Source: an uncultured virus (IMG/VR IMGVR_UViG_3300027917_000026) (Duplodnaviria > Heunggongvirae > Uroviricota > Caudoviricetes). From it: a stretch of DNA of 64,000 bases. Position numbers and translations under genes: made by a program. The stretch lies in IMG/VR virus record IMGVR_UViG_3300027917_000026, one strand, 5' to 3'. The first letter of the stretch is position 1. Every line of letters begins with the position of its first letter. The notes beneath the pieces are model-generated. The model did no database searches. It was not told the DNA's origin and saw only the letters and a program-made list of their open reading frames with translations. Positions 21,530 through 64,000 of the stretch are shown one piece after another.

Positions 21530-21531
21530 AA

Positions 21532-22302: not shown

Positions 22303-22305
22303 TAA

Positions 22306-23535: not shown

Positions 23536-23551
23536 CTTTACCTCCATTCTG

Positions 23552-24847: not shown

Positions 24848-24892
24848 GGTTTTACTCCTTTCATTTGCGGTTCCTATTTACATAGGCCGCGA

Positions 24893-25552
24893 TTATGATT
24901 TTGAGGTAGTCTTTATTTCGTATTTAAAGACTTTTTGTATTTCATCATGCTTGAATACTTTATTTATTGTATCATGTTTAAAAACCCTGTTTTGGTCTTG
25001 ATACTTGAAGATAATTTCTGGATCACTCGCAGGCAATACAGTGTTTTCAAGCCATAGGTAGTCAACATGAAAATGATGTGTCGGTGTGCCTGACCAATTA
25101 TGATAAATCCGAATTCTGAATTGTTGACTACTTACATAATTAGAATATTCATCACCATCGATGCTAAACGTGTAGTCATCCTCTGTTGCCCTTGACGGAA
25201 AATCACCACTATCCGCCGTGAAGTCATCCCATTGACTCAAAGTAAAATTCCACTTTTGTATTTTAACTAAGTGCGCGGGGTTGCCCTGATAATAGCCGTT
25301 TAGATGGATATCCCATGAAGTCATTACAACTGGCAATCCCTCAAAATAAAATTGAAAGTCAAAGCCGGGGTTGCCTGTTACTTCTTCAAAAACCATCGGC
25401 GTGCCATCGTCTGAACGTGTATCATTTAACGTTCCAGAATCAAGATTGCCAATGGTCAGGATATAACTACTTGCATAATACCACGGCACCGTGGTTGTGG
25501 TGGTGCTAGTGGTACTGGTGGTTGTAGTTGTTGTGGTCGTGGTAGTTGACAA
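24893..25552 (-). CDS. virion-type protein with N-terminal poly-Thr tract and C-terminal 9-aa repeats
   Basis: TTG start; 20-residue S/T run; beta-rich domain; (K/R)VFK(H/Y) x3; in frame with the upstream ORF across one TAA. Confidence 0.7.
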   Translation of the reverse strand: MSTTTTTTTTTTSTTSTTTTTVPWYYASSYILTIGNLDSGTLNDTRSDDGTPMVFEEVTGNPGFDFQFYFEGLPVVMTSWDIHLNGYYQGNPAHLVKIQKWNFTLSQWDDFTADSGDFPSRATEDDYTFSIDGDEYSNYVSSQQFRIRIYHNWSGTPTHHFHVDYLWLENTVLPASDPEIIFKYQDQNRVFKHDTINKVFKHDEIQKVFKYEIKTTSKS

Positions 25553-25555
25553 TTT

Positions 25556-25879
25556 TTAGGTTTCCTTTATCTTCATTTTAACGTCAATTTCATATTTGTT
25601 CGCAAGGCTTGTGACGATATAAAATGTGATTTTGTAAGGTGTCAGTGTAGTGGTTCCGCCTTTCACCCTAACTTTGAGATAATGCAAAACATCATCCTTT
25701 GCTTTTGTAGCAATCTCAATAACATCACTTGTGACCTCAGTGGCAAGGTCTGAATAACTCCATGCCTTGATATCACTACTTGCAAGGTCAATTGTTTCGC
25801 CTGTATCCACAACATCTTCGATAGACCCAGCAATAACCCACTCTTCCCAATTTTGCTTGGTAAAACTTTCGACAGCCAT
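25556..25879 (-). CDS. small beta-sandwich virion-type protein
   Basis: 107 aa beta-rich; late-gene context. Confidence 0.65.
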   Translation of the reverse strand: MAVESFTKQNWEEWVIAGSIEDVVDTGETIDLASSDIKAWSYSDLATEVTSDVIEIATKAKDDVLHYLKVRVKGGTTTLTPYKITFYIVTSLANKYEIDVKMKIKET

Positions 25880-25881
25880 TT

Positions 25882-26019
25882 TTACCCTTTCCTTATAATT
25901 CGTTTAAATACATAAAGTGGTTTGCCCAATGCCGTGATAATTACTTCGGCAATCCTTTTGCCATAGCCTTGTGTTACAATTAATTGGCCCGATCCGAATC
26001 CTTTTGTAATTATCTTCAT
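25882..26019 (-). CDS. small protein with IITKGFG/IVTQGYG repeat (45 aa, not in ORF track)
   Basis: MKIITKGFGSGQLIVTQGYGKRIAEV...; fills the gap, with ATGA overlap. Confidence 0.6.
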   Translation of the reverse strand: MKIITKGFGSGQLIVTQGYGKRIAEVIITALGKPLYVFKRIIRKG

Positions 26020-26672
26020 ACACGCCAGCTATCATAGATTTTATAGAAGTTATCACTGACAAGTTTTTTCAAACGGTTTTCTAGTCTGTGATCTAGTTCG
26101 CCATAATTTCTTTTTTCTGTCTTGAAGTCAAAATTGCGAAAGTCCTTTTTAATTGCCGCATTATAAGGAAGATCTTTATAAAAAAATTCGTATCTGATAA
26201 TTTTATTGCCCGATGCTAAAAAATCTTTTACAATCGGATTCCATTGACTACACCACTTTTCAACCGCGCCAATCGTATTGAACCCTCCCAATGCCCGACA
26301 GTGGTTAGGGTGTCGATGACCAAAATAAGAAACATAAGCGTGTAGCGGATGCCTGACAATGCAATATGCGCGGATTTTATTTCTAGTCAAAAACATTTTT
26401 CGCATAGAACACCAGCCCGACAGCAAAACCCAATGACTACATGATTCAATCATATCCACAAGATTTTGTTCAATTGTCTTCATCGGACTTAGAACATGAC
26501 CACCGGTACGGATTGCCCACACCTTTTGTTTTTTTAGATTTGGTAGCATTTCGATATTCAAACCCTCACCCCACAAGGTATCAGGCCGCTTCGCGCAACG
26601 CCCGATATGTCTGTGAATATAAGTAGTGCCATGACCACCCATCGGTGTTATTATCGTTTTTTTCTTAAGCAT
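26016..26672 (-). CDS. sulfotransferase-like protein
   Basis: PMGGHGTT loop, 3'-PB-like IVRHPLHAYVSY, IIRYE. Confidence 0.72.
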   Translation of the reverse strand: MLKKKTIITPMGGHGTTYIHRHIGRCAKRPDTLWGEGLNIEMLPNLKKQKVWAIRTGGHVLSPMKTIEQNLVDMIESCSHWVLLSGWCSMRKMFLTRNKIRAYCIVRHPLHAYVSYFGHRHPNHCRALGGFNTIGAVEKWCSQWNPIVKDFLASGNKIIRYEFFYKDLPYNAAIKKDFRNFDFKTEKRNYGELDHRLENRLKKLVSDNFYKIYDSWRV

Positions 26673-26686
26673 AATTTAACCCTTAT

Positions 26687-27214
26687 TTAAGGAAGAAAAT
26701 CAATAGCCTCTAAGTCGAAGTTCGGGGGTGCTGTAATATCCGTAAAGATGTATAGCCATTGAATATCGTATGGCTCCGTCCAGTTTAGATCCACAATATC
26801 TCCCGATTGATATGTGTACCACGAACCATCCAGCGATGAATAAATGTAGTTATTATTATCATCGTATAGCCTGACTCCAAACTGGTACTCTGTATCACTA
26901 AGAGTCAGCCGCATTTTACTCGGACGGTATTCCTCTTCCCAACTGTTGATCGGGGATATCTTGAGAAGATATTGCTCTGGCTCATATTGACTCTGCCAAT
27001 GGTCAGTTACCCAAGACCCGTAAGGATCTGAGGGCCACGGAGTCCATTTTGTGTTATCAAAATAATCATCTTCCCACGATGGATGCCTTGCATCCCAACG
27101 CTTTTCCCAACCCGAACCTCTTCCCGGCGTTGCACGTCTGGCCGCACGTTTCGGGCCAATTCCACGAAGGCTTGATCTTTTCACACCCCTTTTTCTTTTT
27201 ATCTGTTTTACCAT
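26687..27214 (-). CDS. hypothetical virion-type protein with basic N-terminus
   Basis: 175 aa; Arg/Lys-rich N-terminus then aromatic beta domain. Confidence 0.65.
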   Translation of the reverse strand: MVKQIKRKRGVKRSSLRGIGPKRAARRATPGRGSGWEKRWDARHPSWEDDYFDNTKWTPWPSDPYGSWVTDHWQSQYEPEQYLLKISPINSWEEEYRPSKMRLTLSDTEYQFGVRLYDDNNNYIYSSLDGSWYTYQSGDIVDLNWTEPYDIQWLYIFTDITAPPNFDLEAIDFLP

Positions 27215-27226
27215 TCGACTACCTCT

Positions 27227-27430
27227 TTAAGTAGTTGTTGTGGTTGTAGTGGTTGTTGTGGTTGTCGGGCCAGATCCACCACCACCAACACGTTGCCATC
27301 CCGACTCTCCACCACGTATCAATGGCGGATGACCTTTTTTCTGATCGATACGAAGATTATCAGGACTAAAACTTTTCACCGCATCCCGACCAATTTTTTT
27401 CTTAATAATTTTTACAGGTGGTTTTGCCAT
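27227..27430 (-). CDS. small basic protein with GGGGSGP linker and C-terminal T12
   Basis: GGAGTAAAA RBS; ends GGGGSGPTTTTTTTTTTTT. Confidence 0.75.
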   Translation of the reverse strand: MAKPPVKIIKKKIGRDAVKSFSPDNLRIDQKKGHPPLIRGGESGWQRVGGGGSGPTTTTTTTTTTTT

Positions 27431-27441
27431 CTTTTACTCCT

Positions 27442-28116
27442 CTAAGTTGTTGTGGTTGTTGTGCTGGTCGTAGTTGTTGTGGTACTTGTAGTTGTAGTAA
27501 TTCGTACCCTCTCAAAAACATCATCTGACGCGGGTACACCATTTGAATCAAACAGATTGAATCTAGCAATTTCTGTCACATTATCTTCATCATAAAAAAT
27601 CATTTGATTCGTTGTTGTATCAATTTTCCAACGACCACCTTCCATTGAATGAATAAATTGTGTCTTCGTATAAATGTCCGACAATTGGGCTTGCTCAGAA
27701 GGTGTCAATCCACTTCCACTATCAACTTCACTTATTGTCGGTGATGAAGACAATGCCCTATCAACAGTGATATAATCTGTTGGATATCTAGGATCTATTG
27801 GATCACCATTATCATCTACTGCAACTAAATTTCCGCCGCTTATTATACATAAAGTCCAACTAGGGCCACCTCTTGCTTCAAAAGCTAAAACAGCATTATT
27901 AAGCGTTGCGGTAATTCCTACAAAGTCAGTGGCACCGATTGGTTCTTTACCACCCGCATCAATTAGGTAGTCAAATACAAGTCCGTTTGGACTATCCTCC
28001 AAATATTTGCAAGTGTCGTATAAGTCCTGAACTGTTATTTCCGTAGAGGGTGACGCAACAGTTAACAATCTAGGGCTTAAATCCCAATCGATGCTGACAT
28101 CACTTCTTATCGTCAT
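27442..28116 (-). CDS. virion-type protein with C-terminal poly-Thr/Ser tail
   Basis: 224 aa; 18-residue T/S tail; TVQDLYD motif echoes 28317..30848. Confidence 0.75.
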   Translation of the reverse strand: MTIRSDVSIDWDLSPRLLTVASPSTEITVQDLYDTCKYLEDSPNGLVFDYLIDAGGKEPIGATDFVGITATLNNAVLAFEARGGPSWTLCIISGGNLVAVDDNGDPIDPRYPTDYITVDRALSSSPTISEVDSGSGLTPSEQAQLSDIYTKTQFIHSMEGGRWKIDTTTNQMIFYDEDNVTEIARFNLFDSNGVPASDDVFERVRITTTTSTTTTTTSTTTTTT

Positions 28117-28303
28117 CCTTTGACTCCTCTAAGTTAACGACAATTCTGTTTTCATTGGCTTGCATTTGTTTTCTTTCAATGACTTCTTTCATACGCCGAT
28201 ATTCCTTAATCGTTGCGTATTCTTTTTCAATTGCTTCCTCAAAAGTCTTGATGTTTTTTCTACAAGCCTCAATTCCTTTTTCAAGTGCATCCGCATTATA
28301 CAA
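28100..28303 (-). CDS. small coiled-coil protein
   Basis: TTG start at 28303 after AAGGAG; heptad-like EKGIEACRKNIKTFEEAIEKE. Confidence 0.6.
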   Translation of the reverse strand: MYNADALEKGIEACRKNIKTFEEAIEKEYATIKEYRRMKEVIERKQMQANENRIVVNLEESKDDDKK

Positions 28304-28316
28304 TGATTTACTCCTT

Positions 28317-30848
28317 TTATGAAATGATAGTATCTTCCGTTCGCACAACAGGAATCGATTGATCGGTGCCGGAAGTTGAACCGTCAGAACTGTAAGGTTT
28401 AATTTTCTTGACAGAACTTCGGGTATTTCTAACTTTAACCCTAAAGTAAACGGGTGATCCGGGGTAGATAATTGAAACTTGTTCTTCCGTGTTTGCGGCA
28501 TAACGATGCATAATCGCCGCAAACACTCGATCAGAGGAAGTTGTCACAATGGGAACGGCATTAATTTCAACATTATCTCCATTCCCTTGACCCGTAATTG
28601 GCGGATCAATAGTCACCGAGTTTGCACTATCTACCGTTTTAATGTAGGAAATCGCATTGCTTTGAGATTTGTTTAAAACCAAATCCCCTCTTTTTGCGTT
28701 GGTAAATGCACTGGCCTCCGTCAATGTCGTGGTGGTCGCACCTGTAATCGAAGGCAAATCGATGTTCGCCAAGGTAAACGTGTCGGTGCCGGAATCATAG
28801 GAAGAGTACCGAATAACATATTCATTATTGTCATCGGTAACATCGACCAAAATAATTCTTCCGGCAGATGGCACTTGATCGCCAATTGCGTCAACCGCAA
28901 TCGTGGTATCACCAATTGCTTCACCACCATCACAAGTCATTTCAGTTTTGTTAACATCTCCACCCGAAGCTGTCAACTGGTAAATTCCTACAAGGTCATC
29001 AGTATCAGTTGTCTCATCCGTACCCTCAAGATTCGTGACTTCAATGACTATTGATGTTGGTCGTTCCCTTGTGGTGCCGCCAATATCGGTCAGGATGAAA
29101 GAGTTTTCATCCGCCGCAAGGTAATCACTAAGTAGTAAACCCCGCGCCCCGAAATACGTGCCACCCGCGAAGGTGCCTAATGGTGCCGCAACCTTGGCGG
29201 CAAAATTACCCGCCGCACTTGGAGTAAAGTAATCGGAATCATCATCAGCATCAATTTGATTACTACCATTGAAAGTACCTCTTGTGGATCTAAGCAAAAC
29301 AATCTGATTGCTTGCATCGTGCGAAATAATTACTCCTGTCGCGCCACTTGTTTGTTGCGTAACAGACTCACCTTCCGCAATCGTGCCACTAATAGCACTA
29401 TACGTGAAGTATGCTGTGGCACCCTCATATTCTTCACCATAAATATCCGCTTGTGATAAGTCATCGGTAAATGCCTGTTCTACAATATCGGCATCACCTT
29501 GCGTGTATTGACAAATATATTTTGCCCATTGATAAACTTCTGTCAGTGGGTTCTGATTACAATCAATGGTCACACCGTAGTATTCGTCAGTGCCATCATT
29601 GTCTATATCTGCCGTAGTATTACCAATGACTAGATCGGGCGGCGTGCCGGAATTCGTAAACCAAGTTGAATCGGATGGCCCATCATCACTAGGCCCACTT
29701 GAAGCAGTTGCCGAACCACTACCCGCGCCTTGACTAGTAATAACATCACCATTTTGCAATGCTGTCAATGCGCCACCAGTGGTATCTTCCGCAATTGGGA
29801 AGTAAACAATTTCAGTGTCAACGGTCGAGTTTGTCAGGTCAATAATACCTCTTCCGCTTGATGTGCCACCCTCAATAATTTCACCATCAACAAACGTTCC
29901 CGTCCATGACCCTGTAGATATTTTCTTTGTTCCATGGCCTTGATCCAAATCAACGGCAGTCTGTAATGGTACAGGATTCCGACCACCGGATGTAGTTGAA
30001 TTGGCAACCTCAAATGAGGAGTAAAGATCACCACCCTTGCGTGCAAATACCCGCAAATAACCACCGTCAATAATCGGAAAACCGGATGACTTCCAATCTT
30101 TAATAGGCACAACGAAGTCAATATGACCTTGACCCCAATAATCAAGCGTTGTACTATTAACAGAATAAACGCGATTGCTGTCATCTGTAGTCAAACGCTC
30201 GCCTTGATACACATACAGGTGAACACTTGATTCAATAGTACCAATTGAGTAGATATTCGCCCAAATCATATCACCCGTAATCGCCGCCGTAGTAATTGAC
30301 GTTGCACTTTGGCCAGAACAGGTAAGGGTTCCTGTAGTATTGTCAAAGCTGTTACCAATTGCATCTGAATCTGGTCGGATGAAAAGATAGTCACTAGCGC
30401 CACCATCTGAAATGACTTCAAGCAAAGTGCCACTATCACCATCTGTATGCGTGATATCTACACCTCGATTTGTGTTATCTATATCACTTGATGCCGATGC
30501 GACTTCAACCATGACAATGCCTGTATTAGAATCCTGCACTCGCGCCCAATTCGCGGTACGCAAGGCACCACCAGTGATATGCTCCATCAAATCAAAAGTA
30601 ATATACCACGGATCATTATCACCCGCATCAATTATGCCGGTAGTATATTCGACAGGGGTTTCAGCGGAGAACGCTGAACCATCGTCAATAGTTGTTTCTT
30701 CATCCAACAGATTCGCCATTGCCGAGTATAATTCATTCATGGTGTAGTTATCATTGCTACCACCAATCCAATACATCATCTTTGTTCGATTATTGGAAAA
30801 GTAGTAAACGCCGATATCACCATTTAGAATAGTTGTATCATTCGCCAT
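28317..30848 (-). CDS. large acidic beta-rich virion-type protein
   Basis: 843 aa, Gly/Thr/Asp/Ser-rich; repeated GExIxxxTS(G)AxG-like modules. Confidence 0.75.
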   Translation of the reverse strand: MANDTTILNGDIGVYYFSNNRTKMMYWIGGSNDNYTMNELYSAMANLLDEETTIDDGSAFSAETPVEYTTGIIDAGDNDPWYITFDLMEHITGGALRTANWARVQDSNTGIVMVEVASASSDIDNTNRGVDITHTDGDSGTLLEVISDGGASDYLFIRPDSDAIGNSFDNTTGTLTCSGQSATSITTAAITGDMIWANIYSIGTIESSVHLYVYQGERLTTDDSNRVYSVNSTTLDYWGQGHIDFVVPIKDWKSSGFPIIDGGYLRVFARKGGDLYSSFEVANSTTSGGRNPVPLQTAVDLDQGHGTKKISTGSWTGTFVDGEIIEGGTSSGRGIIDLTNSTVDTEIVYFPIAEDTTGGALTALQNGDVITSQGAGSGSATASSGPSDDGPSDSTWFTNSGTPPDLVIGNTTADIDNDGTDEYYGVTIDCNQNPLTEVYQWAKYICQYTQGDADIVEQAFTDDLSQADIYGEEYEGATAYFTYSAISGTIAEGESVTQQTSGATGVIISHDASNQIVLLRSTRGTFNGSNQIDADDDSDYFTPSAAGNFAAKVAAPLGTFAGGTYFGARGLLLSDYLAADENSFILTDIGGTTRERPTSIVIEVTNLEGTDETTDTDDLVGIYQLTASGGDVNKTEMTCDGGEAIGDTTIAVDAIGDQVPSAGRIILVDVTDDNNEYVIRYSSYDSGTDTFTLANIDLPSITGATTTTLTEASAFTNAKRGDLVLNKSQSNAISYIKTVDSANSVTIDPPITGQGNGDNVEINAVPIVTTSSDRVFAAIMHRYAANTEEQVSIIYPGSPVYFRVKVRNTRSSVKKIKPYSSDGSTSGTDQSIPVVRTEDTIIS

Positions 30849-30916
30849 TTAACATTTCTCCTTAAGGTTTGTAGTTATCAGTTAATCCCAAAACTATTGC
30901 TGTTTTCATCACCCCC

Positions 30917-32626
30917 TTAAGTAGTTGTTGTGGTTGTGGTTGTTGTCGTTGTGGTTCCAATCCAAGTATTTAGCGGATCTACAACTAATGTTATTGACAA
31001 TGACAAACCACTTGCACCGATAGTTTGTAGTGAACTATATGCCTTATATTTTGTGCCACCATATGCGCCACTTGCCTCCCTTGCCCTAACCTCTGCTTCG
31101 GCAGGTGTTGACCCTGTATAATTTGCACTGACCTCACCACTTGCATTTGTTACCGTATTAACTACTTCCGTTCTGTCAGATGTTAAATAAATTCCAACCC
31201 TCACATCTTTAAGCGTATTGCCATCTTCATCCTTTACGGTAATTGCAATCGGCACTGATCCAGTAATATTTACAGTATCACCCGTTCTTGCCTTGTAGTA
31301 ACTTATCGTGCCTGTCGTTCCAGTATGGGCAACAGTCCATGTGGTATCACTACCTTTATCTGGAAAGTAAAGAACAGAAGTTGTTTGTTGGTCAGACGTG
31401 CTAAAATCAGTGAAAGTCATGTTAGTTAAATTGATAGTGGTCGGCGCGGAAGTACCAAATTCAATTGCATGATGTGACCCCGCGCCTTTTGTGAAAGTCA
31501 TATCATTTAAGTAGGTATTTGGATCACTAGATTCATTCCATAAAAGCGCACCACCACCCGCACTGCCGCCACCTGTAACAGCCGATACAAGAATGCTAGA
31601 ATAAGATAAATCTCCGCCACCCGGATCTACTTGCAAACACCTGACCCACCTACATTGCAAGGCAACTGTATTGGAGTCAAATGTAAATGTTCCCATATCT
31701 TGAAATGAACACGTTTCAAGATTTATATCAGCATTTGCATTTGTAACCCATCTTCCTTTTGATGCATTTGTTGATGGAGTAATACAGATAAATTGAAAGT
31801 TAGTCATATCAACGCGAGAACCAGAATTATTTACTTCAATGGTATTAAAGTTTGACGTAACTTTTGGACACCATTTGACTAGAATAATTCTGTTACTATC
31901 TCTGAAGTCAACTGCATTAGACGCGGTGCCAAGAGTCATCTTACCTTGCCACAAATAACCACCAAGCACGCGAGTTATCAAGCCCCATCTATTGTAGCCA
32001 TTTGTTCCATCATTATAGGCATCCTCTGTAGCAAACCCGTCTATCGTGCAATAATCAGCCGTTTCACCAAATTCAAAAATTGACGAACATCTTCCATATC
32101 TAATTGCATCACAACCATGCGGATAACCCTTGCCCGAACCAGTCGCCACATTAACAGTACTACCCACAACCTCTTCAGATGTTGTTGGCGAACCAACTGT
32201 AACATCGACACTGACAGTAGTATTTACAGCATTGCAAACCCATCCGCCAGCCGGATATGGCGGAATATCTACACCACCAACATGCCAGACATAAAAATGG
32301 TTTGGGTCATTTCCTACAGCAATCCCAAATCCGCCATTGCTGTAATTTTGCAGGTTACTATTTACTCCGTACATTTGCCAAACCAAATATGCACCATCGG
32401 TTCCATGACCACCTGTACCACTACCATTATCATAAGCAATAGATCCTAATGCTGTTTTCGTACAAATCTGCGTAATGGCGTACTGGCCTTGAATAAATTG
32501 GTAGTCAGTATCAGCCGCAATTCCTCCTTGACCATCATAGTTGCCAGCTTGCAACTCATCCCAACCACTAGTTGATTCGGCAAGATTAAAATCAGTTAAA
32601 TCTTCTGTATAACTAGGCGCGGTCAT
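30917..32626 (-). CDS. virion-type protein (beta-rich, C-terminal Ig-like domain) with C-terminal T12
   Basis: 569 aa; ITVKDEDG...TNASG; ends GTTTTTTTTTTTT. Confidence 0.75.
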   Translation of the reverse strand: MTAPSYTEDLTDFNLAESTSGWDELQAGNYDGQGGIAADTDYQFIQGQYAITQICTKTALGSIAYDNGSGTGGHGTDGAYLVWQMYGVNSNLQNYSNGGFGIAVGNDPNHFYVWHVGGVDIPPYPAGGWVCNAVNTTVSVDVTVGSPTTSEEVVGSTVNVATGSGKGYPHGCDAIRYGRCSSIFEFGETADYCTIDGFATEDAYNDGTNGYNRWGLITRVLGGYLWQGKMTLGTASNAVDFRDSNRIILVKWCPKVTSNFNTIEVNNSGSRVDMTNFQFICITPSTNASKGRWVTNANADINLETCSFQDMGTFTFDSNTVALQCRWVRCLQVDPGGGDLSYSSILVSAVTGGGSAGGGALLWNESSDPNTYLNDMTFTKGAGSHHAIEFGTSAPTTINLTNMTFTDFSTSDQQTTSVLYFPDKGSDTTWTVAHTGTTGTISYYKARTGDTVNITGSVPIAITVKDEDGNTLKDVRVGIYLTSDRTEVVNTVTNASGEVSANYTGSTPAEAEVRAREASGAYGGTKYKAYSSLQTIGASGLSLSITLVVDPLNTWIGTTTTTTTTTTTT

Positions 32627-33077
32627 TCTTAAACATCTCCATTCTCTTTTTTACTTCTTGTTTAATCCATGGTAATTCAACACCTTTGGCTCGATGCACA
32701 ACAAAAGTTCCATTGCGGTGAATAACTACTGAAAAACCATCTTTTAAGAATGCTTTGATTTGTTTTCCTACAACGCTATTGATATCATAGTCTGGATCCA
32801 CAAGTCCGAACATTATTTTATTTTCGCCAATTCTTTCAAAAATTACATGGCAGTTATTCGGTCTTAATGATGGATTACATTTTTCCATTGCATTGTAGGC
32901 ACATTTATATTCTTTGCAACGTTGCGGTATTGCTAAGTTGTAAATCTTGCAACCATTCTTGGGATCACAATGCCTACACCACTTTCCGGCTGGGCTGTCC
33001 ATCCAAAATACATCTAACAATTTGCAACATAGCGTGCAGTCATCACATTTCACGTTGGCACCTATCAATAATTTCAC
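32613..33077 (-). CDS. CxxCxxCC (YkgJ/FliB-like) metal-binding protein
   Basis: CDDCTLCC ... CRHC ... CKIY ... C; start uncertain. Confidence 0.75.
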   Translation of the reverse strand: MKLLIGANVKCDDCTLCCKLLDVFWMDSPAGKWCRHCDPKNGCKIYNLAIPQRCKEYKCAYNAMEKCNPSLRPNNCHVIFERIGENKIMFGLVDPDYDINSVVGKQIKAFLKDGFSVVIHRNGTFVVHRAKGVELPWIKQEVKKRMEMFKNDRA

Positions 33078-33441
33078 TTGTAGATGTTCTGAAACGAAAG
33101 TTGATAAATTTGACTTCGGCTAAATCCTCACCCACAATGGGTTTGCCTTTCCAATCCGCACCTTTAACAATGTAGTCAGGCTTGACCATTTTTATTGTTT
33201 CATATAATTCGGGTTCGCCATCAAAAATAATTACTTCATCAATCAATCGAATTGACAACAAAATATATTGTCGTTGATCCTGATTCATAATAGGTCTGCC
33301 ATCACCCTTTAATTCGTGAACGGATCTATCAGAATTTAAACCGACAATCAGATAGTCACCAAAACCCCTTGCTTGCTCGAAGCAATCAATGTGACCTGGA
33401 TGTAGTAAATCAAAACAACCGTTTGTCCATACCTTAATCAT
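33043..33441 (-). CDS. hldC: D-glycero-beta-D-manno-heptose-1-phosphate adenylyltransferase (HldE domain II)
   Basis: WTNGCFDLLHPGH, VGLNSDRSVHELKG.GRP, VKGADW, STS. Confidence 0.92.
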   Translation of the reverse strand: MIKVWTNGCFDLLHPGHIDCFEQARGFGDYLIVGLNSDRSVHELKGDGRPIMNQDQRQYILLSIRLIDEVIIFDGEPELYETIKMVKPDYIVKGADWKGKPIVGEDLAEVKFINFRFRTSTSEIIDRCQREM

Positions 33442-34744
33442 TTATACCTCCTTTATGATAGTAAGTATCGGCGTCTGAATGGTGCGTGCTAAATTCAATG
33501 AATGTAGCAAACCCTGTTTCCGCCTTGAATCTGTGATTGATCCCGGGCCTAATCCGAAAGAAGTCACCCGCCCCTAGCCTATGAATTTTGTCATCCAAAA
33601 TATCAAGTAGTAAAACACCATTGGTCACATAAAAAGTTTCATCTTTTTTCTTATGACTATGATATTTGCCTTTACTACTCCACACACTATGTACTGTTAA
33701 CTCTTTGCCGCAGTACATATCATTATTTTCGATCCACTTTTCAAAACCCCAATCCTTCGACACATGCTTTGCCTTACTGATTTTAAATTTCTCATCTTGG
33801 AAGATATCATCCCAAGTGACCGTTGCGGTTCCTACTTTTGAAACCACCATTGATGATGCTTTATTGGCATATCTCAATGTAGTACTTGTCGAAAACTTTC
33901 CGCGTTCAACTGCACCAAAGACAAAACCAAGTACAGCAAAAAATGTGTCACCCGCACCTGTCAGATCATTTACTTCAACGAATTCAGATTCGATTTTCAA
34001 GGGTTTCTCATAATAAGTGCGACCTTTATCCATATATAATAAACCATCCTTGCCAAGAGTGACTACAAGCCGTTCCGTATCGGCACACTCATCCAGTATT
34101 TTCTTTGCGGCAAGTTGGTAGTCATTTTCAATGCCTGATGCCAAACCCGCTTCATAACGATTGCATTTTATCAATTCGACTTTTCCATATTTCATGTAGT
34201 CAACTTTATTATTTGGCGGATCAACTAAAATATTGGTATTGCCACATGATTGAATTTCATCAATTACTTCATCTGTAATAACGCCCTTGCCATAATCGCT
34301 TATCATAATAACATCAACTTCCGGCAAGATATGATTCAATCTTGATCTAAGCGTTGCGGTAATTCGTTTGTCTACAGGTGCCATAGATTCAGTATCTAAG
34401 CGGCATACCTGCTGACCATTCGCAATGATCCTATTTTTCAAGGTTGTCGGTCGTTTGTCATCGATGATTAACCCTGAAGTATTTATCCCATACTTATCAA
34501 GTAAATGAATTAATTCTTTTCCTTGGTTATCATTTCCTACAACACCGACAATGTAAACTTGCGCACCTAGCGCAATCAAATTACTACAAACATTACCCGC
34601 ACCACCGGGCATTTCGTTTGAATTGCCATCCATAGTAATTAATAGTGCAGATGCTTCTGGATTTACCCGATTGTTAGTGCCGTACAAGTAGGTATCCAGC
34701 ATTACATCACCGACAACTAAAATTTTTGGATTTTTGTTTTGCAT
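33434..34744 (-). CDS. hldA: heptose-7-phosphate kinase (HldE domain I, PfkB family) fused to C-terminal cupin
   Basis: VVGDVMLD, PGGAGNV, TTLKNR, SDYGKG, DLTGAGD; C-terminal KDWGFEKW...HSHKKKDETF...HRF cupin. Confidence 0.92.
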   Translation of the reverse strand: MQNKNPKILVVGDVMLDTYLYGTNNRVNPEASALLITMDGNSNEMPGGAGNVCSNLIALGAQVYIVGVVGNDNQGKELIHLLDKYGINTSGLIIDDKRPTTLKNRIIANGQQVCRLDTESMAPVDKRITATLRSRLNHILPEVDVIMISDYGKGVITDEVIDEIQSCGNTNILVDPPNNKVDYMKYGKVELIKCNRYEAGLASGIENDYQLAAKKILDECADTERLVVTLGKDGLLYMDKGRTYYEKPLKIESEFVEVNDLTGAGDTFFAVLGFVFGAVERGKFSTSTTLRYANKASSMVVSKVGTATVTWDDIFQDEKFKISKAKHVSKDWGFEKWIENNDMYCGKELTVHSVWSSKGKYHSHKKKDETFYVTNGVLLLDILDDKIHRLGAGDFFRIRPGINHRFKAETGFATFIEFSTHHSDADTYYHKGGIND

Positions 34745-35308
34745 TTAACTACACCTTTTTATTTTAAACTTATATCCGCACTCGCCATTCGGCGGCGTTT
34801 CTTCAGGGTTTTCGGGATATGATTTCCTTCTGTCAAAATTACAACCTTGCGTTGGATCATCATATACTTTACAATAACTTTCCCTTTGACCCCATTTATA
34901 CTTCCATTCAAGAAACTTACAACCAATCTCAATCTTTACTACACGTGCGAATAGATGATTACTTCCATTATAGCCAACGTCTCGCTCATCAACCTCTTCG
35001 ATCCATGATGAAACTTTTTGCACAAAACGCTTGTCACACTTACTTTCATTGTAGGCAAGTATCCTTGCTTTTTTAGAACTGTAACTTTCAGGATAGTAGT
35101 AATATTCAATCCGATCACAACACCATCCGCAATCAGTACATCTGCCGTAGCGTTCATATTCAGTAGTCAAACGGTTATCACCACCTTTTGTTCCGAATTT
35201 TTGAAAATGGCTACCACCCATCCTATTCAACACCCCTGTCGAGTTAGGATTTATCTTTTGCTTGTCACAACAAAATAGGGTGGTAGCCATAGTCATATTC
35301 CCTTTCAA
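34745..35308 (-). CDS. CxxCxxCC (YkgJ-like) metal-binding protein
   Basis: CTDCGWCC ... CKFL ... CKVY ... C ... YP ... CGY. Confidence 0.72.
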   Translation of the reverse strand: MKGNMTMATTLFCCDKQKINPNSTGVLNRMGGSHFQKFGTKGGDNRLTTEYERYGRCTDCGWCCDRIEYYYYPESYSSKKARILAYNESKCDKRFVQKVSSWIEEVDERDVGYNGSNHLFARVVKIEIGCKFLEWKYKWGQRESYCKVYDDPTQGCNFDRRKSYPENPEETPPNGECGYKFKIKRCS

Positions 35309-58174: not shown

Positions 58175-58615
58175 CTACGATGGTTTGAAATAGAAAATTC
58201 CGCCATCCGCAAGTTTGTGGTTCCTTACATCGAAGTGAAACCAAGTGATGTCAGTTTCAATTGCCTTAATGAGTGAATACTCTTCCCGGTCAGGGTTTGC
58301 AATGATATCCTGACGAATCTCTTCGGCTGTCACTTTGACAGGAATCAAATCCAAAGCTCTTCCAAATTTATGTTGACTTAAAGCCGCGCCAAACGCGGAG
58401 CCAAAAGGTCTAAAACCCCTCAAGGTGCTGTCACCACCCCATTGCCACGTATTGACTACAATGGTTCCGAAACGATGACGCAACAAATCAGCCGTTATCA
58501 ATACCCGATCATCAAATAACAGCCAAAGTTTGTCTACCTTGTTTTGTTTGGCATACTTTTCAAATAAATCCTTCGGCACAAGTTCATAAATTTCAAAGAA
58601 TTCTGGGATATACAT
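58175..58615 (-). CDS. peptidase M15-family endolysin
   Basis: RGFR, SQHKFGRALD, WFHFDVR. Confidence 0.85.
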   Translation of the reverse strand: MYIPEFFEIYELVPKDLFEKYAKQNKVDKLWLLFDDRVLITADLLRHRFGTIVVNTWQWGGDSTLRGFRPFGSAFGAALSQHKFGRALDLIPVKVTAEEIRQDIIANPDREEYSLIKAIETDITWFHFDVRNHKLADGGIFYFKPS

Positions 58616-58617
58616 TT

Positions 58618-58818
58618 TTACTCCTTTTCATATATGATATCATTGCCTTGATCCGGCAATGGTTCAGAATGAAGGTTTTCGCCATAGGCAATCTCCTCTG
58701 GAATGCGATCTGGAAAGGCTTTGCAAACAACCCTTTCCGTTTCCTCTTCCTCATTATCTTGTTTCACCCCAAGGAAATGCCTACATTTCCGAATTGAACA
58801 TTTTGGTTGCTCGATCAT
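58618..58818 (-). CDS. small Cys-rich protein, candidate MuF-toxin partner/immunity
   Basis: CSIRKCRH...CKAFPDRIPEEI..G...H; downstream of MuF. Confidence 0.65.
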   Translation of the reverse strand: MIEQPKCSIRKCRHFLGVKQDNEEEETERVVCKAFPDRIPEEIAYGENLHSEPLPDQGNDIIYEKE

Positions 58819-59099
58819 ATTTCACCATGTATTGCAATATGTTTTTCATATGCGGCTTTTACTCCATCAAAATTTTCTGGATCAATTAAAACCGCTTGAC
58901 GAAAGAAAAAAGTGTAGGGATTAAATTTCCCTATTATTTCCGCAAAGTCAGAATAGCTTTTATATTGATGCTTCGGCAATTCATGGACTATATTGATCTT
59001 GCCGCCTTTGACCACATCAAAGGATTGATATTGATCCTCATTTGTTACCCATCCAGAAATGTAGTCATCTGAAATATCTATAACGCAAATTAAATCCAT
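58815..59099 (-). CDS. small acidic protein, candidate immunity protein
   Basis: translationally coupled (TAATG) to the MuF stop. Confidence 0.6.
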   Translation of the reverse strand: MDLICVIDISDDYISGWVTNEDQYQSFDVVKGGKINIVHELPKHQYKSYSDFAEIIGKFNPYTFFFRQAVLIDPENFDGVKAAYEKHIAIHGEI

Positions 59100-61870
59100 T
59101 ATAAGAATTCCACTGGAATGTTGTACCGTTCCGCCAATTGGCGTATATGCGACAGACCACTTCCATAATCAGACTTGTGAACAATTATCTTTACTACATC
59201 ACCCCTTGCCAAATCGATGCCGCCATAGACTTGCGCCTCTACGTATGAATAAGCACCATCCGCCCATCCGCCCAATGTCTCCTGACCACTAAGCAAACGG
59301 CGAACATACCGCGACGCCTCATCTATACTTCTTGATCCACGTATCCATCCCGCAAGTCGGCGCAATATAGGTGCGCTATTTTCTAACGTTCCCAAACCAT
59401 CAGGGATATGTACTGCCGAAGAGTTACCACTAGTCAATGTCACATTTGCCTTGAATTTATCATGTAGTACAAATTCAATATCTCCATATTGACTAGCTGA
59501 TCCCGGATGAATCGGATCACGTAGAAATCCGTAAATCGGCCTTTCACCCGCAACAGCCGCAGGCAAATCCGCGCCATCACTGACTTTGCGGTAGGCAGGA
59601 TTTTTCTGCAACGTTCCATTTGATAATGCACGTTCCCAACGGTCACGACCAGAACCTTTGTATGGGCCGAGATAACCACTACTTGAACCAGCATTCTTTC
59701 CTAATTGAAATTGATTTTTAAACTTTCCATTTTTAAAAATATCTTTATAACTTGCCGCCGTTGCCGAATGCAATTGTCTACGTACAGAAATAACTGCATT
59801 GTCAGCAACCATTTGTGCAAGTTGCTGAACCTCTTCCGGTTCAATGCCCAAATATTCCGCAATGCGCCTTGTTTTTTCAGTAGTCAATTTTCCTGTATCA
59901 TCGGCAAATTTAATTGTTTGCTTCTGCCGAGTGTTTAGCGGCGGCCTTTCAGCCGCTTTTTTTAGCGTCACCTTTTTGACAGGCGGAAGTTTTACTACAG
60001 GTATCTCACCCTTAAATAAATTATCAAAAAAATCTTCGATCTCTTTTGGCAACATACCTTTTCGATAATGTTTGCTTGTGCGAATCGCCCATGCTTCCGC
60101 AAATGCCTCTTTGACATTGGTTGCCGAGTAGTTAGTTACTTTACTTTCCCACCATGACTTCCCATGTTTATTCCAAATATTATCCCACGCCTCATCAAAT
60201 TTGTTTAGTGGTGCATAACGTTTAAATAAAATGGAGTGAACATGATGACCGAATTCATGCCGAAAAGTAATTGACGGTAAATGCGCGGCATGTGTGGATG
60301 TTGACGAAGACCATGGTGTAGTCAATTTCATAATACTACGTTCAAGCACCATATTATCAGCCGCAATCGCCATCCGCGTTCCGCCATGGATTCCAAATGT
60401 TGACTTCCATCTTTCGGCAAGCTTGCCTAGATATTTATCCTTTACAAATTTGATATGTGTTATTGGATGACTACTTAGAGCATCCGCAATTAATGGACTT
60501 AAGCCGGTCATGTGTTCAACTGCATCAGCGACAGGTTTGACAATCATTTCAATAAAATTATCATAAGCATCTTCGCTGAAATCCACAATTCCATAGACCC
60601 CACGGTCAGCAAGCCTTTCATGCGGATCGACACCCGAAACCTTTGGAGGCTTTCCGCCTTTTACTACTTTCAATTCGGGTTTCTTTGGTTTCGGTGCCGC
60701 CTTTGGTTTTGGCTTTGCCTTCTTTTTAACAGCCGCGCCATAGGCTTTCAATTCATCTTTCAATTCCTTTAATTCGGCACGCAAGATTTTCCGCATTGCT
60801 ACGCCCTCTTTATATTCGGCATACAAGGCGGCACGTTCCTTTGTGAATTCTTTGCCCTTTTTGCCTTTCATGGCGTAGTATTTGGTTTTCAATTCATCGG
60901 TTCGCGCACTTGACTCCTTTAATTCCTTTTCCTTTGCGTCAACCCTTGCGGCAATTCGTTTTGCTTCATCGTCACCCGCATCCGCCGCCATTCTCGCAAC
61001 AATTTCTTCTTGAGAAATTTCTTCGCCTAATTCATCCTCAAGCCATTCTTTTCTGACAGGCCGCCAATGATGCCTACAATTATATCCGCCACGGTATTGA
61101 AAAGCTGGGCCACGTTTGCCTTGCCATGGCATCGAATCCCATGAGTCAATTGTTCTCTTCGTGTAAACCTTGCCAGCGCGGGTTATACAGAAGGGGCGTG
61201 ATGTTTGGATCACATCACCCACATATAAATAATGAGTGTAGTTAAGATCCTCAGCCTTTTTTAGAGTCACCGCATTATGGAAGTCATGCACCGCATCATG
61301 CGCAAAAGTGGTTGCATATAAACTCATAGGTCTTCCGCGTGCATCGGTGTGACCTGTCAGGACACCCGCAATCGTATTGCGCAATGTAGAAAACTTTTGA
61401 CCCCTGATAACATGGTCATACATTGCCGCCGCAATTGCGTCTCGCGCCTCTTCGCCAAAAGCCGCGAATTGCCTGTATGTCTGAAGCCTTAATTGATCCA
61501 TTATTGTTTTGTCGATTCCTGTAAATGCAATTGCATCACCAAAAGATCTAAAACGCCGTTTGACTACATCGGAAATGCTTGAAAAGTCACCCAGCATTTC
61601 ATCAACCGTCACATTATATGACTTCTCAAATTCCTTTACAAGCTGTGTGTGCATTGACTGCGCCATTTTGATATTTGCCTTTGTTGCGGCAAGTGTACCC
61701 CTAGGCGTTGTATCAAGTTTATTCAGCATATCAGTAATGTCTTCGCGCAATCCATTAATAGCACCTAGCAATCGCCGTTCATGGTTGTCGGCTAAATGAG
61801 ATAAGAAGTCATCGTCATCAAGTGACGATTGTAGCAATTCGGCGATGCCTATTTCACGAACCGTTGCCAA
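59099..61870 (-). CDS. MuF/minor head protein with zincin metallopeptidase and DUF3626/ART-like C-terminal domains
   Basis: follows portal; SRPFC...GGYNCRHHW; HEFGH...YSATNVKEAFAE; FKNQF...RPIYG...YGDI.FVL...YVEAQVYG. Confidence 0.82.
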   Translation of the reverse strand: MATVREIGIAELLQSSLDDDDFLSHLADNHERRLLGAINGLREDITDMLNKLDTTPRGTLAATKANIKMAQSMHTQLVKEFEKSYNVTVDEMLGDFSSISDVVKRRFRSFGDAIAFTGIDKTIMDQLRLQTYRQFAAFGEEARDAIAAAMYDHVIRGQKFSTLRNTIAGVLTGHTDARGRPMSLYATTFAHDAVHDFHNAVTLKKAEDLNYTHYLYVGDVIQTSRPFCITRAGKVYTKRTIDSWDSMPWQGKRGPAFQYRGGYNCRHHWRPVRKEWLEDELGEEISQEEIVARMAADAGDDEAKRIAARVDAKEKELKESSARTDELKTKYYAMKGKKGKEFTKERAALYAEYKEGVAMRKILRAELKELKDELKAYGAAVKKKAKPKPKAAPKPKKPELKVVKGGKPPKVSGVDPHERLADRGVYGIVDFSEDAYDNFIEMIVKPVADAVEHMTGLSPLIADALSSHPITHIKFVKDKYLGKLAERWKSTFGIHGGTRMAIAADNMVLERSIMKLTTPWSSSTSTHAAHLPSITFRHEFGHHVHSILFKRYAPLNKFDEAWDNIWNKHGKSWWESKVTNYSATNVKEAFAEAWAIRTSKHYRKGMLPKEIEDFFDNLFKGEIPVVKLPPVKKVTLKKAAERPPLNTRQKQTIKFADDTGKLTTEKTRRIAEYLGIEPEEVQQLAQMVADNAVISVRRQLHSATAASYKDIFKNGKFKNQFQLGKNAGSSSGYLGPYKGSGRDRWERALSNGTLQKNPAYRKVSDGADLPAAVAGERPIYGFLRDPIHPGSASQYGDIEFVLHDKFKANVTLTSGNSSAVHIPDGLGTLENSAPILRRLAGWIRGSRSIDEASRYVRRLLSGQETLGGWADGAYSYVEAQVYGGIDLARGDVVKIIVHKSDYGSGLSHIRQLAERYNIPVEFL

Positions 61871-61874: not shown

Positions 61875-63401
61875 TTATTCCTCAATTCCCTCATCTTCGT
61901 CAGACAGTGGTGGTTGTTGGTTTGGCGGAAGATTTTGACCCGGCATGTTCTGTGAATATTCATCAAATTCTTCTGTCGCGTCAATCTCATCATCGATATC
62001 CTTTATCATATCAACATCGGCGGCGGGTAGCATTTTCCGCGCAACCTGTTTTTGTAGTTGTTTATTGAATATGTCAGATTTGACTATAATTGATGCAGTC
62101 AAAATATTTTCAAGGTCTGTCGCAAGATCCTCAACGTCATACGTTCTTTCACGTTCAATTGAAAATTCGCCAACATCTACATTTTCCCATGCCGCCCAAT
62201 ACTCAACAATCTTGCGTTCCGCTTTTTCAAGGTTAATTGCTTTTCGCACCAACATGGAGTTAAGCAATTGAAATTCGGCTTTCAATGCCGTACCCGATTT
62301 TGCTGTTGTAGATATTTCAGTGGATGCCATTCCGCCAGCGTTCACGGCTCGATATATCTCCATAACTTTTCTTTCAATCCATGCTAAAACCGCGTCAATC
62401 GGTTCTTTAACTGCGGCGGCAAGCCAATCAGGTTTTGACTCCGGATGTTCGGGATCAAATTCTAAAATTGCAGTAACACCTGTTTCATCCTCTCCGGCAA
62501 CCTGTTGATGACCGGGCACTTGCTCCTGTTTCGGTTTTCTCATCATAGGAAAAGCCGCATAAGTAATAATTTCTTCGCCGTGACTTAAATTCCTTAGTAT
62601 TGAAACATCGATTCTCGAAACATCATGGATATCCGAAATACCTATCGGCCTAACTTTACTTCTAAGATTTTGTAGCCAAACAAACGGAATCTCACCCAAT
62701 GTATTATCACCCTCACCAATCAATTCCGCTTCTTTTGAATTTATCTTCGCGGCGTGCTTATCACCCGCCGAATCCTCATCATTTTCATCATCAGGTATCT
62801 CCCATATCTCCCAATGGTCTGGCCACCACAAGCGATATTGTTTATCCTCATCCAATAACTTCAAATAAGACAGATACGGCCGGTTGTTTTCGTCTCGCGC
62901 ATATTCCCAATCCATAATAGCTTGCGGAAGATATCTTGCCACATATGGATAAACATTTTCTTCGACTTGCTCGGCGCGGGTTTCAAATGATCGGGATGCC
63001 TTATCTACAAGTATTCCGACAAGACCTGTCACACCCGCCCACCGACCGCATTCCGTCAAGAAGTCATCCCATGGATCACCATACAAATTGCAGTCATCTT
63101 GAAATTCGGCAAACAGGTTGTCATTTTTAAGGTTCGCCATATCACGCTTTACAGGTTTCTTGAAAAGGTAGAAATTGAAAAGGTCAACTATCGATTTGCT
63201 ATAACTAAAACCATATGCTTCTTTTATTCGCCGTTCATAGTTGCCTTGGCTTTCACGTTCATGTTTTTCAAGATACCCTCTTCGCACCAACTCTTTTGCA
63301 CCCTCATATGCCGCCATCAAAAAAATCCATTCTGGGAAGTAAAACGTATAGAGTTCATGCGTTTCCTTAAGATCACCAGCTTTCAGTTGTTCTTTCGGCA
63401 T
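61875..63401 (-). CDS. portal protein (SPP1-like)
   Basis: 508 aa; YL.KH.RES..Y.RR, LGEIPFV, KSGTAL; precedes MuF. Confidence 0.88.
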   Translation of the reverse strand: MPKEQLKAGDLKETHELYTFYFPEWIFLMAAYEGAKELVRRGYLEKHERESQGNYERRIKEAYGFSYSKSIVDLFNFYLFKKPVKRDMANLKNDNLFAEFQDDCNLYGDPWDDFLTECGRWAGVTGLVGILVDKASRSFETRAEQVEENVYPYVARYLPQAIMDWEYARDENNRPYLSYLKLLDEDKQYRLWWPDHWEIWEIPDDENDEDSAGDKHAAKINSKEAELIGEGDNTLGEIPFVWLQNLRSKVRPIGISDIHDVSRIDVSILRNLSHGEEIITYAAFPMMRKPKQEQVPGHQQVAGEDETGVTAILEFDPEHPESKPDWLAAAVKEPIDAVLAWIERKVMEIYRAVNAGGMASTEISTTAKSGTALKAEFQLLNSMLVRKAINLEKAERKIVEYWAAWENVDVGEFSIERERTYDVEDLATDLENILTASIIVKSDIFNKQLQKQVARKMLPAADVDMIKDIDDEIDATEEFDEYSQNMPGQNLPPNQQPPLSDEDEGIEE

Positions 63402-63551
63402 TTATCTTTTTCCTTTTTTCTTCTTTTTCTTTTTGCCTGTTTTATATGACTGCCCTGTTTGATCTTGACAGATCCGAATTGCGGATACTTTGCTTTTTCC
63501 CGAAGCAATTACTTTTCGCACTCACCTATGGACTTTCGTGCCTTTTGGCAT
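63402..63551 (-). CDS. 49-aa basic protein with in-frame TGA at codon 10 (candidate selenoprotein; not in ORF track)
   Basis: AAGGAG RBS; MPKGTKVHR*VRKVIASGKSKVSAIRICQDQTGQSYKTGKKKKKKKGKR; terminal TAA abuts the portal ATG; hairpin just 3' of the TGA. Confidence 0.65.
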
Positions 63552-63560
63552 TTTTACTCC

Positions 63561-63830
63561 TTAACCAAATTTCGGATTAAAACTAATTCTTCGTCGCGTT
63601 GACTTATACCCACCTGTTGACAATTTATATGCGGCTTGCGCCGTTCTTATGTTTCCGGGAGATCCTGTACGTGCAATATGCTTCAGTGCGGCCTTTTTTA
63701 ATTTCGGTGATGTTCGCATACCGCGCTTTAATGCTTCCCGCGCTTTTGCCATATTCAGCTTACGTGCCGCACGTTGTCGCGGGGTGATCCGTTTCGGCCT
63801 AAGACTTTTACTTCTTTTTCTTTTAGCCAT
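63561..63830 (-). CDS. highly basic small protein (possible DNA-binding core protein)
   Basis: 89 aa Arg/Lys/Ala-rich; AAGGAG RBS. Confidence 0.7.
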   Translation of the reverse strand: MAKRKRSKSLRPKRITPRQRAARKLNMAKAREALKRGMRTSPKLKKAALKHIARTGSPGNIRTAQAAYKLSTGGYKSTRRRISFNPKFG

Positions 63831-64000
63831 TTTTACTCCTTAATTTTCTTTTTAATTTCAAGTAGTGTTTCTTGATTGCTCGGAAACAGGTACACCAACT
63901 TTCACTGTCATCCGGCGGCGGAGGCGGATCGGGCGTAGGTGGCGGATCGGGCGGCGATTCTTTTCCGCCAAACATTACTCCCGCTTTGTTTTCGCTTGAC
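63823..64000 (-). CDS. 3' end of a gene running off the window (Pro-rich linker then Cys and basic tail)
   Basis: open frame ...KESPPDPPPTPDPPPPPDDSESWCTCFRAIKKHYLKLKRKLRSKNG*. Confidence 0.5.
   Translation of the reverse strand, partial: SSENKAGVMFGGKESPPDPPPTPDPPPPPDDSESWCTCFRAIKKHYLKLKRKLRSKNG

Follow-up and report, generated by a model that had tools for sequence, protein, structure and literature searches.

The question raised by this locus is whether a UGA codon inside a small bacteriophage gene is translated as selenocysteine (Sec). The gene lies on the minus strand, at 63402–63551, of a stretch of 64,000 nucleotides (nt) from an uncultured virus (Caudoviricetes; IMG/VR record IMGVR_UViG_3300027917_000026), hereafter the window. 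A preliminary description of this DNA had proposed that the gene, which sits directly upstream of the portal gene, encodes a selenoprotein, with an in-frame UGA followed by a hairpin resembling a selenocysteine insertion sequence (SECIS). Our answer is that the UGA at codon 10 is probably decoded by SelB- and SECIS-dependent insertion of Sec, using the machinery of the host, and we put the probability of this at roughly 0.72. What carries the argument is the combination of a UGA at the position of a conserved Cys with a hairpin of the SECIS type, which together make a bacteriophage-encoded selenoprotein the probable interpretation. The coordinates of the gene and its elements are collected in Table 1.

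The first point to note is that the gene looks complete when it is read through the UGA. Its ribosome-binding site (RBS) and start codon form a 15-mer, TAAGGAGTAAAAATG (63549–63563, minus strand), which recurs with at most one mismatch at the starts at 63828–63842 and 58613–58627, the latter with one mismatch, so that three matches precede called gene starts in the window against a chance expectation of 0.01. With TGA rendered as U, the product is MPKGTKVHRUVRKVIASGKSKVSAIRICQDQTGQSYKTGKKKKKKKGKR. Under genetic code table 11, 63402–63560 is the sole gap left uncovered at that end of the window, and the read-through open reading frame (ORF) fills it. The elements that the preliminary description had listed are thus found as described in the minus-strand sequence: the strong RBS and the ATG at 63551, the TGA at codon 10 followed by 39 further sense codons in frame, the TAA abutting the portal ATG, the filled gap, and a downstream Cys (in the motif AIRIC), which is Cys28.

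The read-through peptide, with C substituted for U, was used as a query and retrieved 19 metagenomic proteins of 37–74 residues (E 8e-15 to 6e-6). The column corresponding to the TGA holds Cys in 17 of them; one protein has Leu there and no second Cys, and the remaining one, P0015 (37 residues), begins just past the TGA position. A profile scan of IMG/VR gave 179 relatives, from which 80 loci were kept, and the codon-10 counts that follow refer to these 80. Codon 10 is TGC or TGT in 64, encodes Leu, Val or Ile in 13, and is TGA in three, whereas in-frame stops occur at none of the other ∼45 codons of the module. Each of the 13 loci whose residue 10 is Leu, Val or Ile has Ala as residue 28, and positions 10 and 28 therefore co-vary. 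The expectation that homologs would carry Cys or TGA at codon 10 is borne out by these proteins and loci and by seven TGA-bearing lineages described below; a pattern of Trp or other residues at this codon, named beforehand as contrary evidence, was not seen, 13 of the 80 loci carrying Leu, Val or Ile.

The further TGA-bearing lineages came from pattern scans of viral and metagenome contigs at the DNA level, in which N- or C-terminal family motifs were combined with TGA at codon 10. Including the window, eight distinct sequences were found on 11 contigs, falling into seven lineages (window with G001; L026 with L027; L105 with L107; L108; L109; L113 with L115; and L114). Every one of the eight sequences keeps MPKGT[KR]V, Cys28, the motif Q..T..SY.TG and the normal stop, so the loss of frame beyond the TGA that had been foreseen for a pseudogene is not observed. 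Sequences from different lineages diverge at 28–32% of nucleotides in the first 120 nt, and the ratios of synonymous to non-synonymous codon changes over the first 40 codons are 18:7 (window/L026), 16:7 (window/L109) and 15:10 (L113/L114), with further between-lineage counts of 16:9 and 16:10. Within the pair L105/L107, 11 of 120 nt differ, with nine synonymous codon changes and one non-synonymous. These counts suggest that purifying selection acts on both sides of the TGA. The phages themselves are well diverged: the window and L026, for example, share 52% identity in their portals, and the two phages carry different replicative polymerases. The other loci returned by the scans (L084, L090–L094, L096–L100, L102–L104, L106, L110, L116 and L117) were chance pattern matches and were discarded after inspection; for the RC[YF] sub-branch, a pattern of TGA followed by Tyr or Phe gave one chance match and no TGA form.

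These data bear directly on the possibility that the gene is simply broken or shortened, the TGA being a nonsense codon that leaves either no functional product or a 39-residue product begun at GTG 63521. Gene callers do take that route: the conventional call here is a 39-residue GTG ORF at 63402–63521, and P0015 starts at the equivalent place. Against this, the stop codon occupies the identical position in seven lineages that differ at 28–32% of nucleotides, with synonymous changes predominating on both sides of it, and the nine N-terminal residues are conserved throughout the TGA forms. The RBS precedes ATG 63551, and none is found before GTG 63521. Codon 11, which is GTG in the window, is GTC, GTA, GTT and GTA in L026, L108, L109 and L114, respectively; as it is not a start codon in four lineages, GTG 63521 is not a conserved alternative start, and restarting there is not a conserved option. 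Likewise, the conserved start and RBS immediately after the stop that would mark termination–reinitiation are not found. We consider a broken or shortened gene improbable.

An error of assembly or sequencing at 63522, the true base being T or C, would also remove the need for any special decoding. In its favour, and hence against Sec, the evidence at the site consists of contigs, the sole sequencing run that covers it may be the source of the window itself, and contigs of the runs X3, X4 and X5 span the flanks (63276–63400 and 63531–63913) and not the TGA. Set against these points are the IMG/VR record G001, which is 100% identical to the window across 601 bases including the TGA, and the ten other contigs that carry TGA at the homologous codon. 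Given this recurrence and the 601-base identity, there is only a very slight chance that the TGA is an error.

The second line of evidence is the hairpin. The preliminary description had noted a stem-loop beyond the UGA, with a G at the second position of its loop, and had suggested that a conserved hairpin in homologs would support decoding as Sec. A hairpin does accompany the TGA forms and is rare in the Cys forms. All eight TGA sequences have a perfect stem of 5–8 base pairs (bp) closed by a loop of 3–7 nt that starts 19–21 nt past the UGA; in L113 and L114, for instance, stems of 7 bp and 6 bp carry the loops GGGG and AGGGAA at 19 nt. Counting stems of at least 5 bp with a 3–7 nt loop starting 17–24 nt after the codon, a criterion set after the data had been viewed, we find one in 6/6 TGA sequences and in 6/62 unique non-TGA sequences (Fisher p = 8e-6, or 5e-5 when counted as five lineages). 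A G in the first two loop positions is present in 6/6 of the TGA sequences and in 1/62 of the others.

The published rules for the bacterial SECIS (bSECIS), as given in a 2026 review of prokaryotic selenoproteomes, call for a loop of 3–9 nt, an upper stem of 4–16 bp, a G in the first two loop positions, a spacing of 16–37 nt from the UGA and a minimum free energy of −7.5 kcal/mol or lower (PMC13188914). The window has this geometry, with its 6-bp stem and the loop CGGGAAA at 19 nt, as do the other seven TGA sequences, while 42 of 60 non-TGA relatives have no structure that satisfies it (two of the 62 non-TGA loci were omitted from the bSECIS tests, their contigs ending too soon). In an implementation that required a single-domain structure, and allowed the UGA to pair and the ends to dangle, 5/6 TGA sequences reach −7.5 kcal/mol or lower (the window at −9.0; L108 fails, at −5.8) compared with 10/60 non-TGA sequences, and the later lineages L113 and L114 reach −12.3 and −13.3 kcal/mol. 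The energies of TGA and non-TGA sequences differ in this test (Mann–Whitney p = 2e-4; 7e-4 without L107). The energy obtained by folding the 60 nt that follow the codon, in contrast, does not separate the classes (mean −13.9 for TGA and −11.7 for Cys loci).

Among 2000 synonymous recodings of the window, 50 reach its stem length, and the same test gives 4, 118, 23, 306 and 17 of 2000 for L026, L105, L107, L108 and L109; the energy of the window is not significant under synonymous shuffles, 1311 of 2000 being at least as low. In an ungapped alignment of six sequences, 76% of cells in the helix columns 17–23/27–33 are paired and four pairs have changed on both sides. The covariation score for these columns is 0.638 versus 0.295, the score of 0.638 being reached in 0 of 500 shuffles, and slid controls remain at or below 0.381; the register that fits the window best, 17–24/28–35, gives no signal. 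With so few sequences, and with a structure derived from those same sequences, the covariation is supportive only.

We propose the following mechanism. The UGA would be read as Sec by the SelB and tRNA-Sec system of the host, SelB being recruited by the stem-loop within the coding region, whose G-containing apical loop starts 19–21 nt past the UGA. The product would then carry a Sec10/Cys28 pair in place of Cys/Cys, and might form a selenylsulfide, a redox site or a metal site. We infer that Sec is the inserted residue, that the host supplies SelABCD, that residues 10 and 28 are bonded and that the protein acts in the virion or in packaging.

A different form of read-through has to be weighed here, in which a near-cognate tRNA for Trp or Cys, perhaps aided by the hairpin, reads the UGA independently of SelB, so that a normal residue is inserted and the UGA throttles the amount of protein. 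The conserved downstream frame and hairpin would suit any read-through mechanism, the hairpin of the window is too weak to identify a SECIS by itself, and Sec machinery is absent from the phage records searched. In these records, a tRNA-Sec above the cut-off was found neither in the window nor in six related ones, SelB was not found in five (G001, G002, G004, G005 and G006), and Pfam searches with 83 ORFs of the window and 43 of G002 gave no Sec genes. A sub-threshold match to the tRNA-Sec model near the gene in G004 and G006 proved to be tRNA-Gly. This tRNA-Gly(UCC), at 2647–2719 (plus strand) of L113, which is G004, and at the same place in L115, lies ∼280 nt upstream of the TGA-bearing gene.

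What argues against such SelB-independent decoding is that the stops fall solely on the Cys10 codon, and that Cys28 is kept in 8/8 TGA forms, whereas a hydrophobic residue 10 always goes with Ala28. The retention of Cys28, together with this pairing of Ala28 with hydrophobic residues, makes Trp unlikely as the inserted residue. Stimulation of read-through by a hairpin is, to our knowledge, not an established mechanism in bacteria. We regard SelB-independent read-through as unlikely, though as an alternative to be taken seriously.

Stop-codon recoding occurs in some phages, and the gene sits in the late structural module, so TGA might conceivably be a sense codon throughout the genome or in its late genes. 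As had been noted from the outset, however, TGA serves as a normal stop in the rest of the window, where 26 of 92 genes from a greedy call end in it, structural ones included, and table 11 gives a coding fraction of 97.5%. Three other phage records that carry the TGA form, two of them rated complete, have TGA as the terminator of 32/139, 29/121 and 11/53 genes, and treating it as sense changes the coding density from 0.912 to 0.911, from 0.918 to 0.913 and from 0.858 to 0.886, with no clear, consistent gain. The window contains no other convincing gene with an in-frame TGA and no tRNA genes, and in the other TGA-bearing records only tRNA-Gly(UCC) and tRNA-Ile(UAU) were found, with no suppressor tRNA. 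The many in-frame TGAs, gain in density and suppressor tRNA that characterise a recoded phage are therefore not seen, and we consider global or late-gene recoding to be excluded for practical purposes.

Several points weigh against the decoding of this UGA as Sec. The main reservations are the weak hairpin of the window and the fact that a host SelABCD and the Sec residue are both postulated. The 63-nt fold of the window (−10.4 kcal/mol) does not stand out from shuffled sequences (−9.85 ± 2.35; z = −0.23), its upper hairpin alone is A–U rich and amounts to −3.9 kcal/mol, and 20 of 55 Cys loci have local structure that is as stable or more so. A strict implementation of the bSECIS rules passes 2/6 TGA sequences, the window failing, and 7/60 non-TGA sequences. 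In addition, the helix register of the window differs by a shift of 2 from that of L026, L108 and L109, an Rfam scan of 63200–63800 at E ≤ 10 returned two chance-level matches and no SECIS family, and the post hoc choice of the 5-bp criterion has to be borne in mind. Of the hairpin as preliminarily described, then, the stem, the loop, its G, the overall geometry and the lower stem (part of the minimum-energy fold) all stand, while by energy alone the element is unremarkable, and the evidence for its significance comes from the relatives.

The remaining reservations concern descent and function. In trees built on the 38 columns that could be used, the TGA forms fall in two or more separate positions, with three or five changes required, whereas a single TGA clade remains acceptable under an approximately unbiased (AU) test on these columns (p = 0.37). 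The hairpin could then be partly inherited, and our claim is therefore that diverged phages have kept the TGA for a long time, and not that it had a series of independent origins. Finally, the insertion of Sec tends to be inefficient, and the residue is typically found in redox enzymes rather than in small structural proteins.

The family to which the gene belongs is large. A profile search of 1.84 billion representative proteins gave 407 at E ≤ 1e-3 and 262 at E ≤ 1e-10, with the module almost always N-terminal in proteins from 42 to more than 600 residues long. In L005, L007, L015, L030, L043, L070 and L072, the ∼45-residue module heads basic, Pro/Gly/Ala-rich proteins of low complexity (205–922 residues), and many further module-headed proteins of 100–600 residues are present among the 407. 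In one protein of 1682 residues (P0021), profile positions 2–17 are matched in 30 separate stretches, as a repeat of a motif like the N-terminal one. The Pfam family DUF7218 (PF23855) is matched by 15 of 68 family members (best E 4e-9) over a span that includes both predicted helices, with scores of up to 33.3 bits among the ten matches listed, some of which exceed the 27-bit cut-off. The window protein itself matches no Pfam family at E ≤ 1, DUF7218 included, and no PHROG family; three PHROGs of unknown function are matched by 13, 9 and 8 of the 68 relatives.

A Cys homolog gave only clusters labelled ‘hypothetical protein’ and a weak match to DUF6496 in a protein atlas. Against 50,697 GenBank phage records, there was no match either to the Cys homolog P0002 by tblastn or to 62800–64000 by blastn in distant mode. 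In one genome from each of 185,579 prokaryote species, the TGA pattern was found 0 times, and the family profile confirmed 0 of 61 pattern matches; these genomes thus yielded neither a prophage copy nor a host.

An AlphaFold model computed with 68 sequences (predicted local distance difference test score, pLDDT, 86) consists of two helices, residues 6–17 and 21–32. The turn lies midway between residues 10 and 28, which should therefore face each other. Taken with the predicted helical hairpin, the alternation between Cys/Cys, Sec/Cys and Leu-Val-Ile/Ala suggests a staple between the helices or a site that they share. Searches of the PDB by sequence returned only spurious repeat matches, and Foldseek against the PDB returned none at E ≤ 0.001. 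A set of 65 neighbouring ORFs was picked from the 123 unique flanking ones that have 80 residues or more; 18 of the 65 match PHROGs for portal, terminase, adaptor, scaffold, protease or virion proteins, and it is from this gene neighbourhood that we infer a head component. A role inside the virion or in packaging is plausible, with a tail that would bind nucleic acid.

The sequencing runs that contain this stretch are labelled as marine sediment and estuary metagenomes. A bolder and distinctly tentative proposal, which we think possible but doubtful, is that these proteins form the first bacteriophage selenoprotein family, in which Sec is structural: in phages of anoxic, sulfidic sediments, a setting that would reduce a normal disulfide, the two helices of a virion or packaging module would be held together by a Sec10–Cys28 selenylsulfide. 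Genes of the heptose type for sugar metabolism hint at a Gram-negative host. The 37-kb record G002 (L111 and L112), labelled a provirus in IMG/VR, was scanned with 43 ORFs against Pfam; the genes that could be recognised are all of phage type or belong to sugar metabolism, and no host flank is visible. A corollary of the structural proposal is that production of the protein would require a host whose Sec pathway works and which is supplied with selenium, so that Sec competence would be a hidden determinant of host range and fitness.

Table 1. Elements of the candidate selenoprotein gene and adjoining genes (window coordinates)
Feature	Position	Strand	Remark
Candidate selenoprotein gene	63402..63551	−	49 codons + TAA; TGA is codon 10
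Shine–Dalgarno sequence AAGGAG	63557..63562	−	5 nt 5′ of the ATG
ATG start of the 49-codon read-through ORF	63549..63551	−	N-terminal MPKGTKV nearly invariant across the family
In-frame TGA, codon 10, proposed Sec codon	63522..63524	−	aligned with the family Cys
Cys28 codon TGT, proposed partner of residue 10	63468..63470	−	kept in 8/8 TGA sequences
TAA stop	63402..63404	−	directly touches the portal ATG at 63401
Upper stem-loop UUGCUU / CGGGAAA / AAGCAA	63490..63508	−	6 bp, 7-nt loop, 19 nt after the UGA
Hairpin parts	UUGCUU 63503–63508; loop CGGGAAA 63496–63502; AAGCAA 63490–63495	−	
SECIS-like element as folded	63475..63524	−	lower stem including the UGA, internal loop, upper stem-loop; minimum-energy structure
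Portal gene, 508 residues	61875..63401	−	phrog_145, 4.4e-57; immediately downstream of the candidate
Very basic 89-residue ORF upstream	63561..63830	−	same RBS-plus-start motif; weak phrog_25996, E 0.003

The portal of the window is less than 31% identical to its nearest counterparts in cultured phages by tblastn, which belong to phages of Pelagibacter, Rhizobium and other proteobacteria, and this is too distant for a host to be assigned. A second small basic protein, the 89-residue ORF of Table 1, thus also precedes the portal gene. Directly after the portal gene, 59099–61870 (minus strand) encodes a 923-residue protein with a C-terminal DUF3626 (5e-15) and a weak, sub-threshold match of the zinc-metalloprotease type (Pfam ATLF, 4e-4), and this protein is possibly a large enzyme that is associated with the head or ejected. 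The A-rich tract at 63401–63440 encodes the Lys tail of the candidate; contigs of other runs stop there, repeats were skipped there in the comparison with the sequencing runs, and the tract is likely to be an assembly break point in relatives.

Further away, a run of sugar-modification genes at 19794–35308 (minus strand) includes GT2 and GT9-like glycosyltransferases, a sulfotransferase, methyltransferases, a cytidylyltransferase and a fusion of a PfkB kinase with a cupin, and looks like a heptose or nucleotide-sugar pathway. At 482–3865 (plus strand) lies a DnaE-type polymerase III alpha subunit with a C-terminal domain of the uracil-DNA-glycosylase (UDG) family. In L112, from another TGA-bearing phage, the polymerase is of family A and its UDG-family domain is N-terminal (13506–16043, plus strand), and the same kind of fusion partner is thus found on two different polymerase types.

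How does the candidate compare with what has been described? In a search of the full-text literature, subscription-only papers being outside its scope, no report of a bacteriophage-encoded selenoprotein was found. In the 2026 review of prokaryotic selenoproteomes, the words phage, virus and viral do not occur (PMC13188914). A marine survey of trace-element proteins reports that beyond a few named families the metalloprotein and selenoprotein families examined had no or very few viral sequences (PMC9402790). Neither of two family motifs, nor the word ‘phage’, occurs in four supplementary files of the Global Ocean Sampling (GOS) selenoproteome. If the present reading is right, gene callers would systematically miss or truncate such genes, and viral selenoproteomes would be invisible in current catalogues.

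Among phages, the nearest formal parallels are genome recoding and the UGA read-through of Q-beta, in which, as here, a stop inside a phage ORF must be read through. Phage recoding affects many genes, usually with suppressor tRNAs, whereas neither many recoded genes nor suppressor tRNAs are seen here; read-through of the Q-beta type extends a complete protein, whereas the UGA here falls inside a conserved domain, at a codon that is otherwise one for Cys. DUF7218, a family of unknown function linked to the candidate through its relatives, includes Leu/Val/Ile + Ala forms among its best-matching members, which indicates that pairing of the Cys/Cys and Sec/Cys kind belongs to the phage branch. 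If Sec is inserted, one small fold that exists with Cys, with Sec and with Leu/Ala would provide a natural series on what Sec offers over Cys.

Viral links to Sec are known from two other settings. A predicted tRNA-SeC gene in Basilisk-like Bacillus phages was reported in 2018 as a first (PMC6145125). Those phages too connect a phage with the Sec system, through a tRNA gene and with no phage selenoprotein named (PMC6145125); the present case is the opposite, a candidate selenoprotein with no tRNA-Sec in the window and six related records. Among eukaryotic viruses, molluscum contagiosum virus and fowlpox virus encode selenoproteins that are homologs of glutathione peroxidase, and these two poxvirus proteins are the only viral ones that a 2021 review of recoding names (PMC8310308). 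The likeness lies in a viral protein whose UGA is decoded as Sec by host machinery, and in the fowlpox case in a SECIS within the coding region (PMC8310308). The poxvirus proteins are captured cellular enzymes with a SECIS of the eukaryotic type (PMC8310308), whereas the candidate belongs to a bacteriophage, has a hairpin of the bacterial type and is part of a phage-specific family with no cellular homolog in the genomes of 185,579 species. If the Sec reading is right, phages would be exploiting the most specialised translation pathway of their hosts, and their fitness would be tied to selenium and to host Sec competence.

The closest comparison is with the bacterial Sec genes themselves. The textbook example is fdhF of E. 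coli, a selenoprotein gene with a SECIS in its coding region that is served by SelB. The candidate resembles such genes in having its UGA opposite the Cys of homologs and, within the ORF, a stem-loop of 5–8 bp with a small, G-bearing apical loop at 19–21 nt, although the hairpin of the window is weaker than the usual energy of the bSECIS model. It differs in being borne by a phage, in consisting of a basic two-helix module of ∼45 residues without a recognisable oxidoreductase fold, in lacking a CxxU or UxxC motif, the partner Cys being 18 residues away, and in having its UGA 27 nt from the start. If the assignment is correct, Sec would here be placed in a 45-residue module that is not an enzyme, in a setting very unlike that of the known bacterial selenoproteins.

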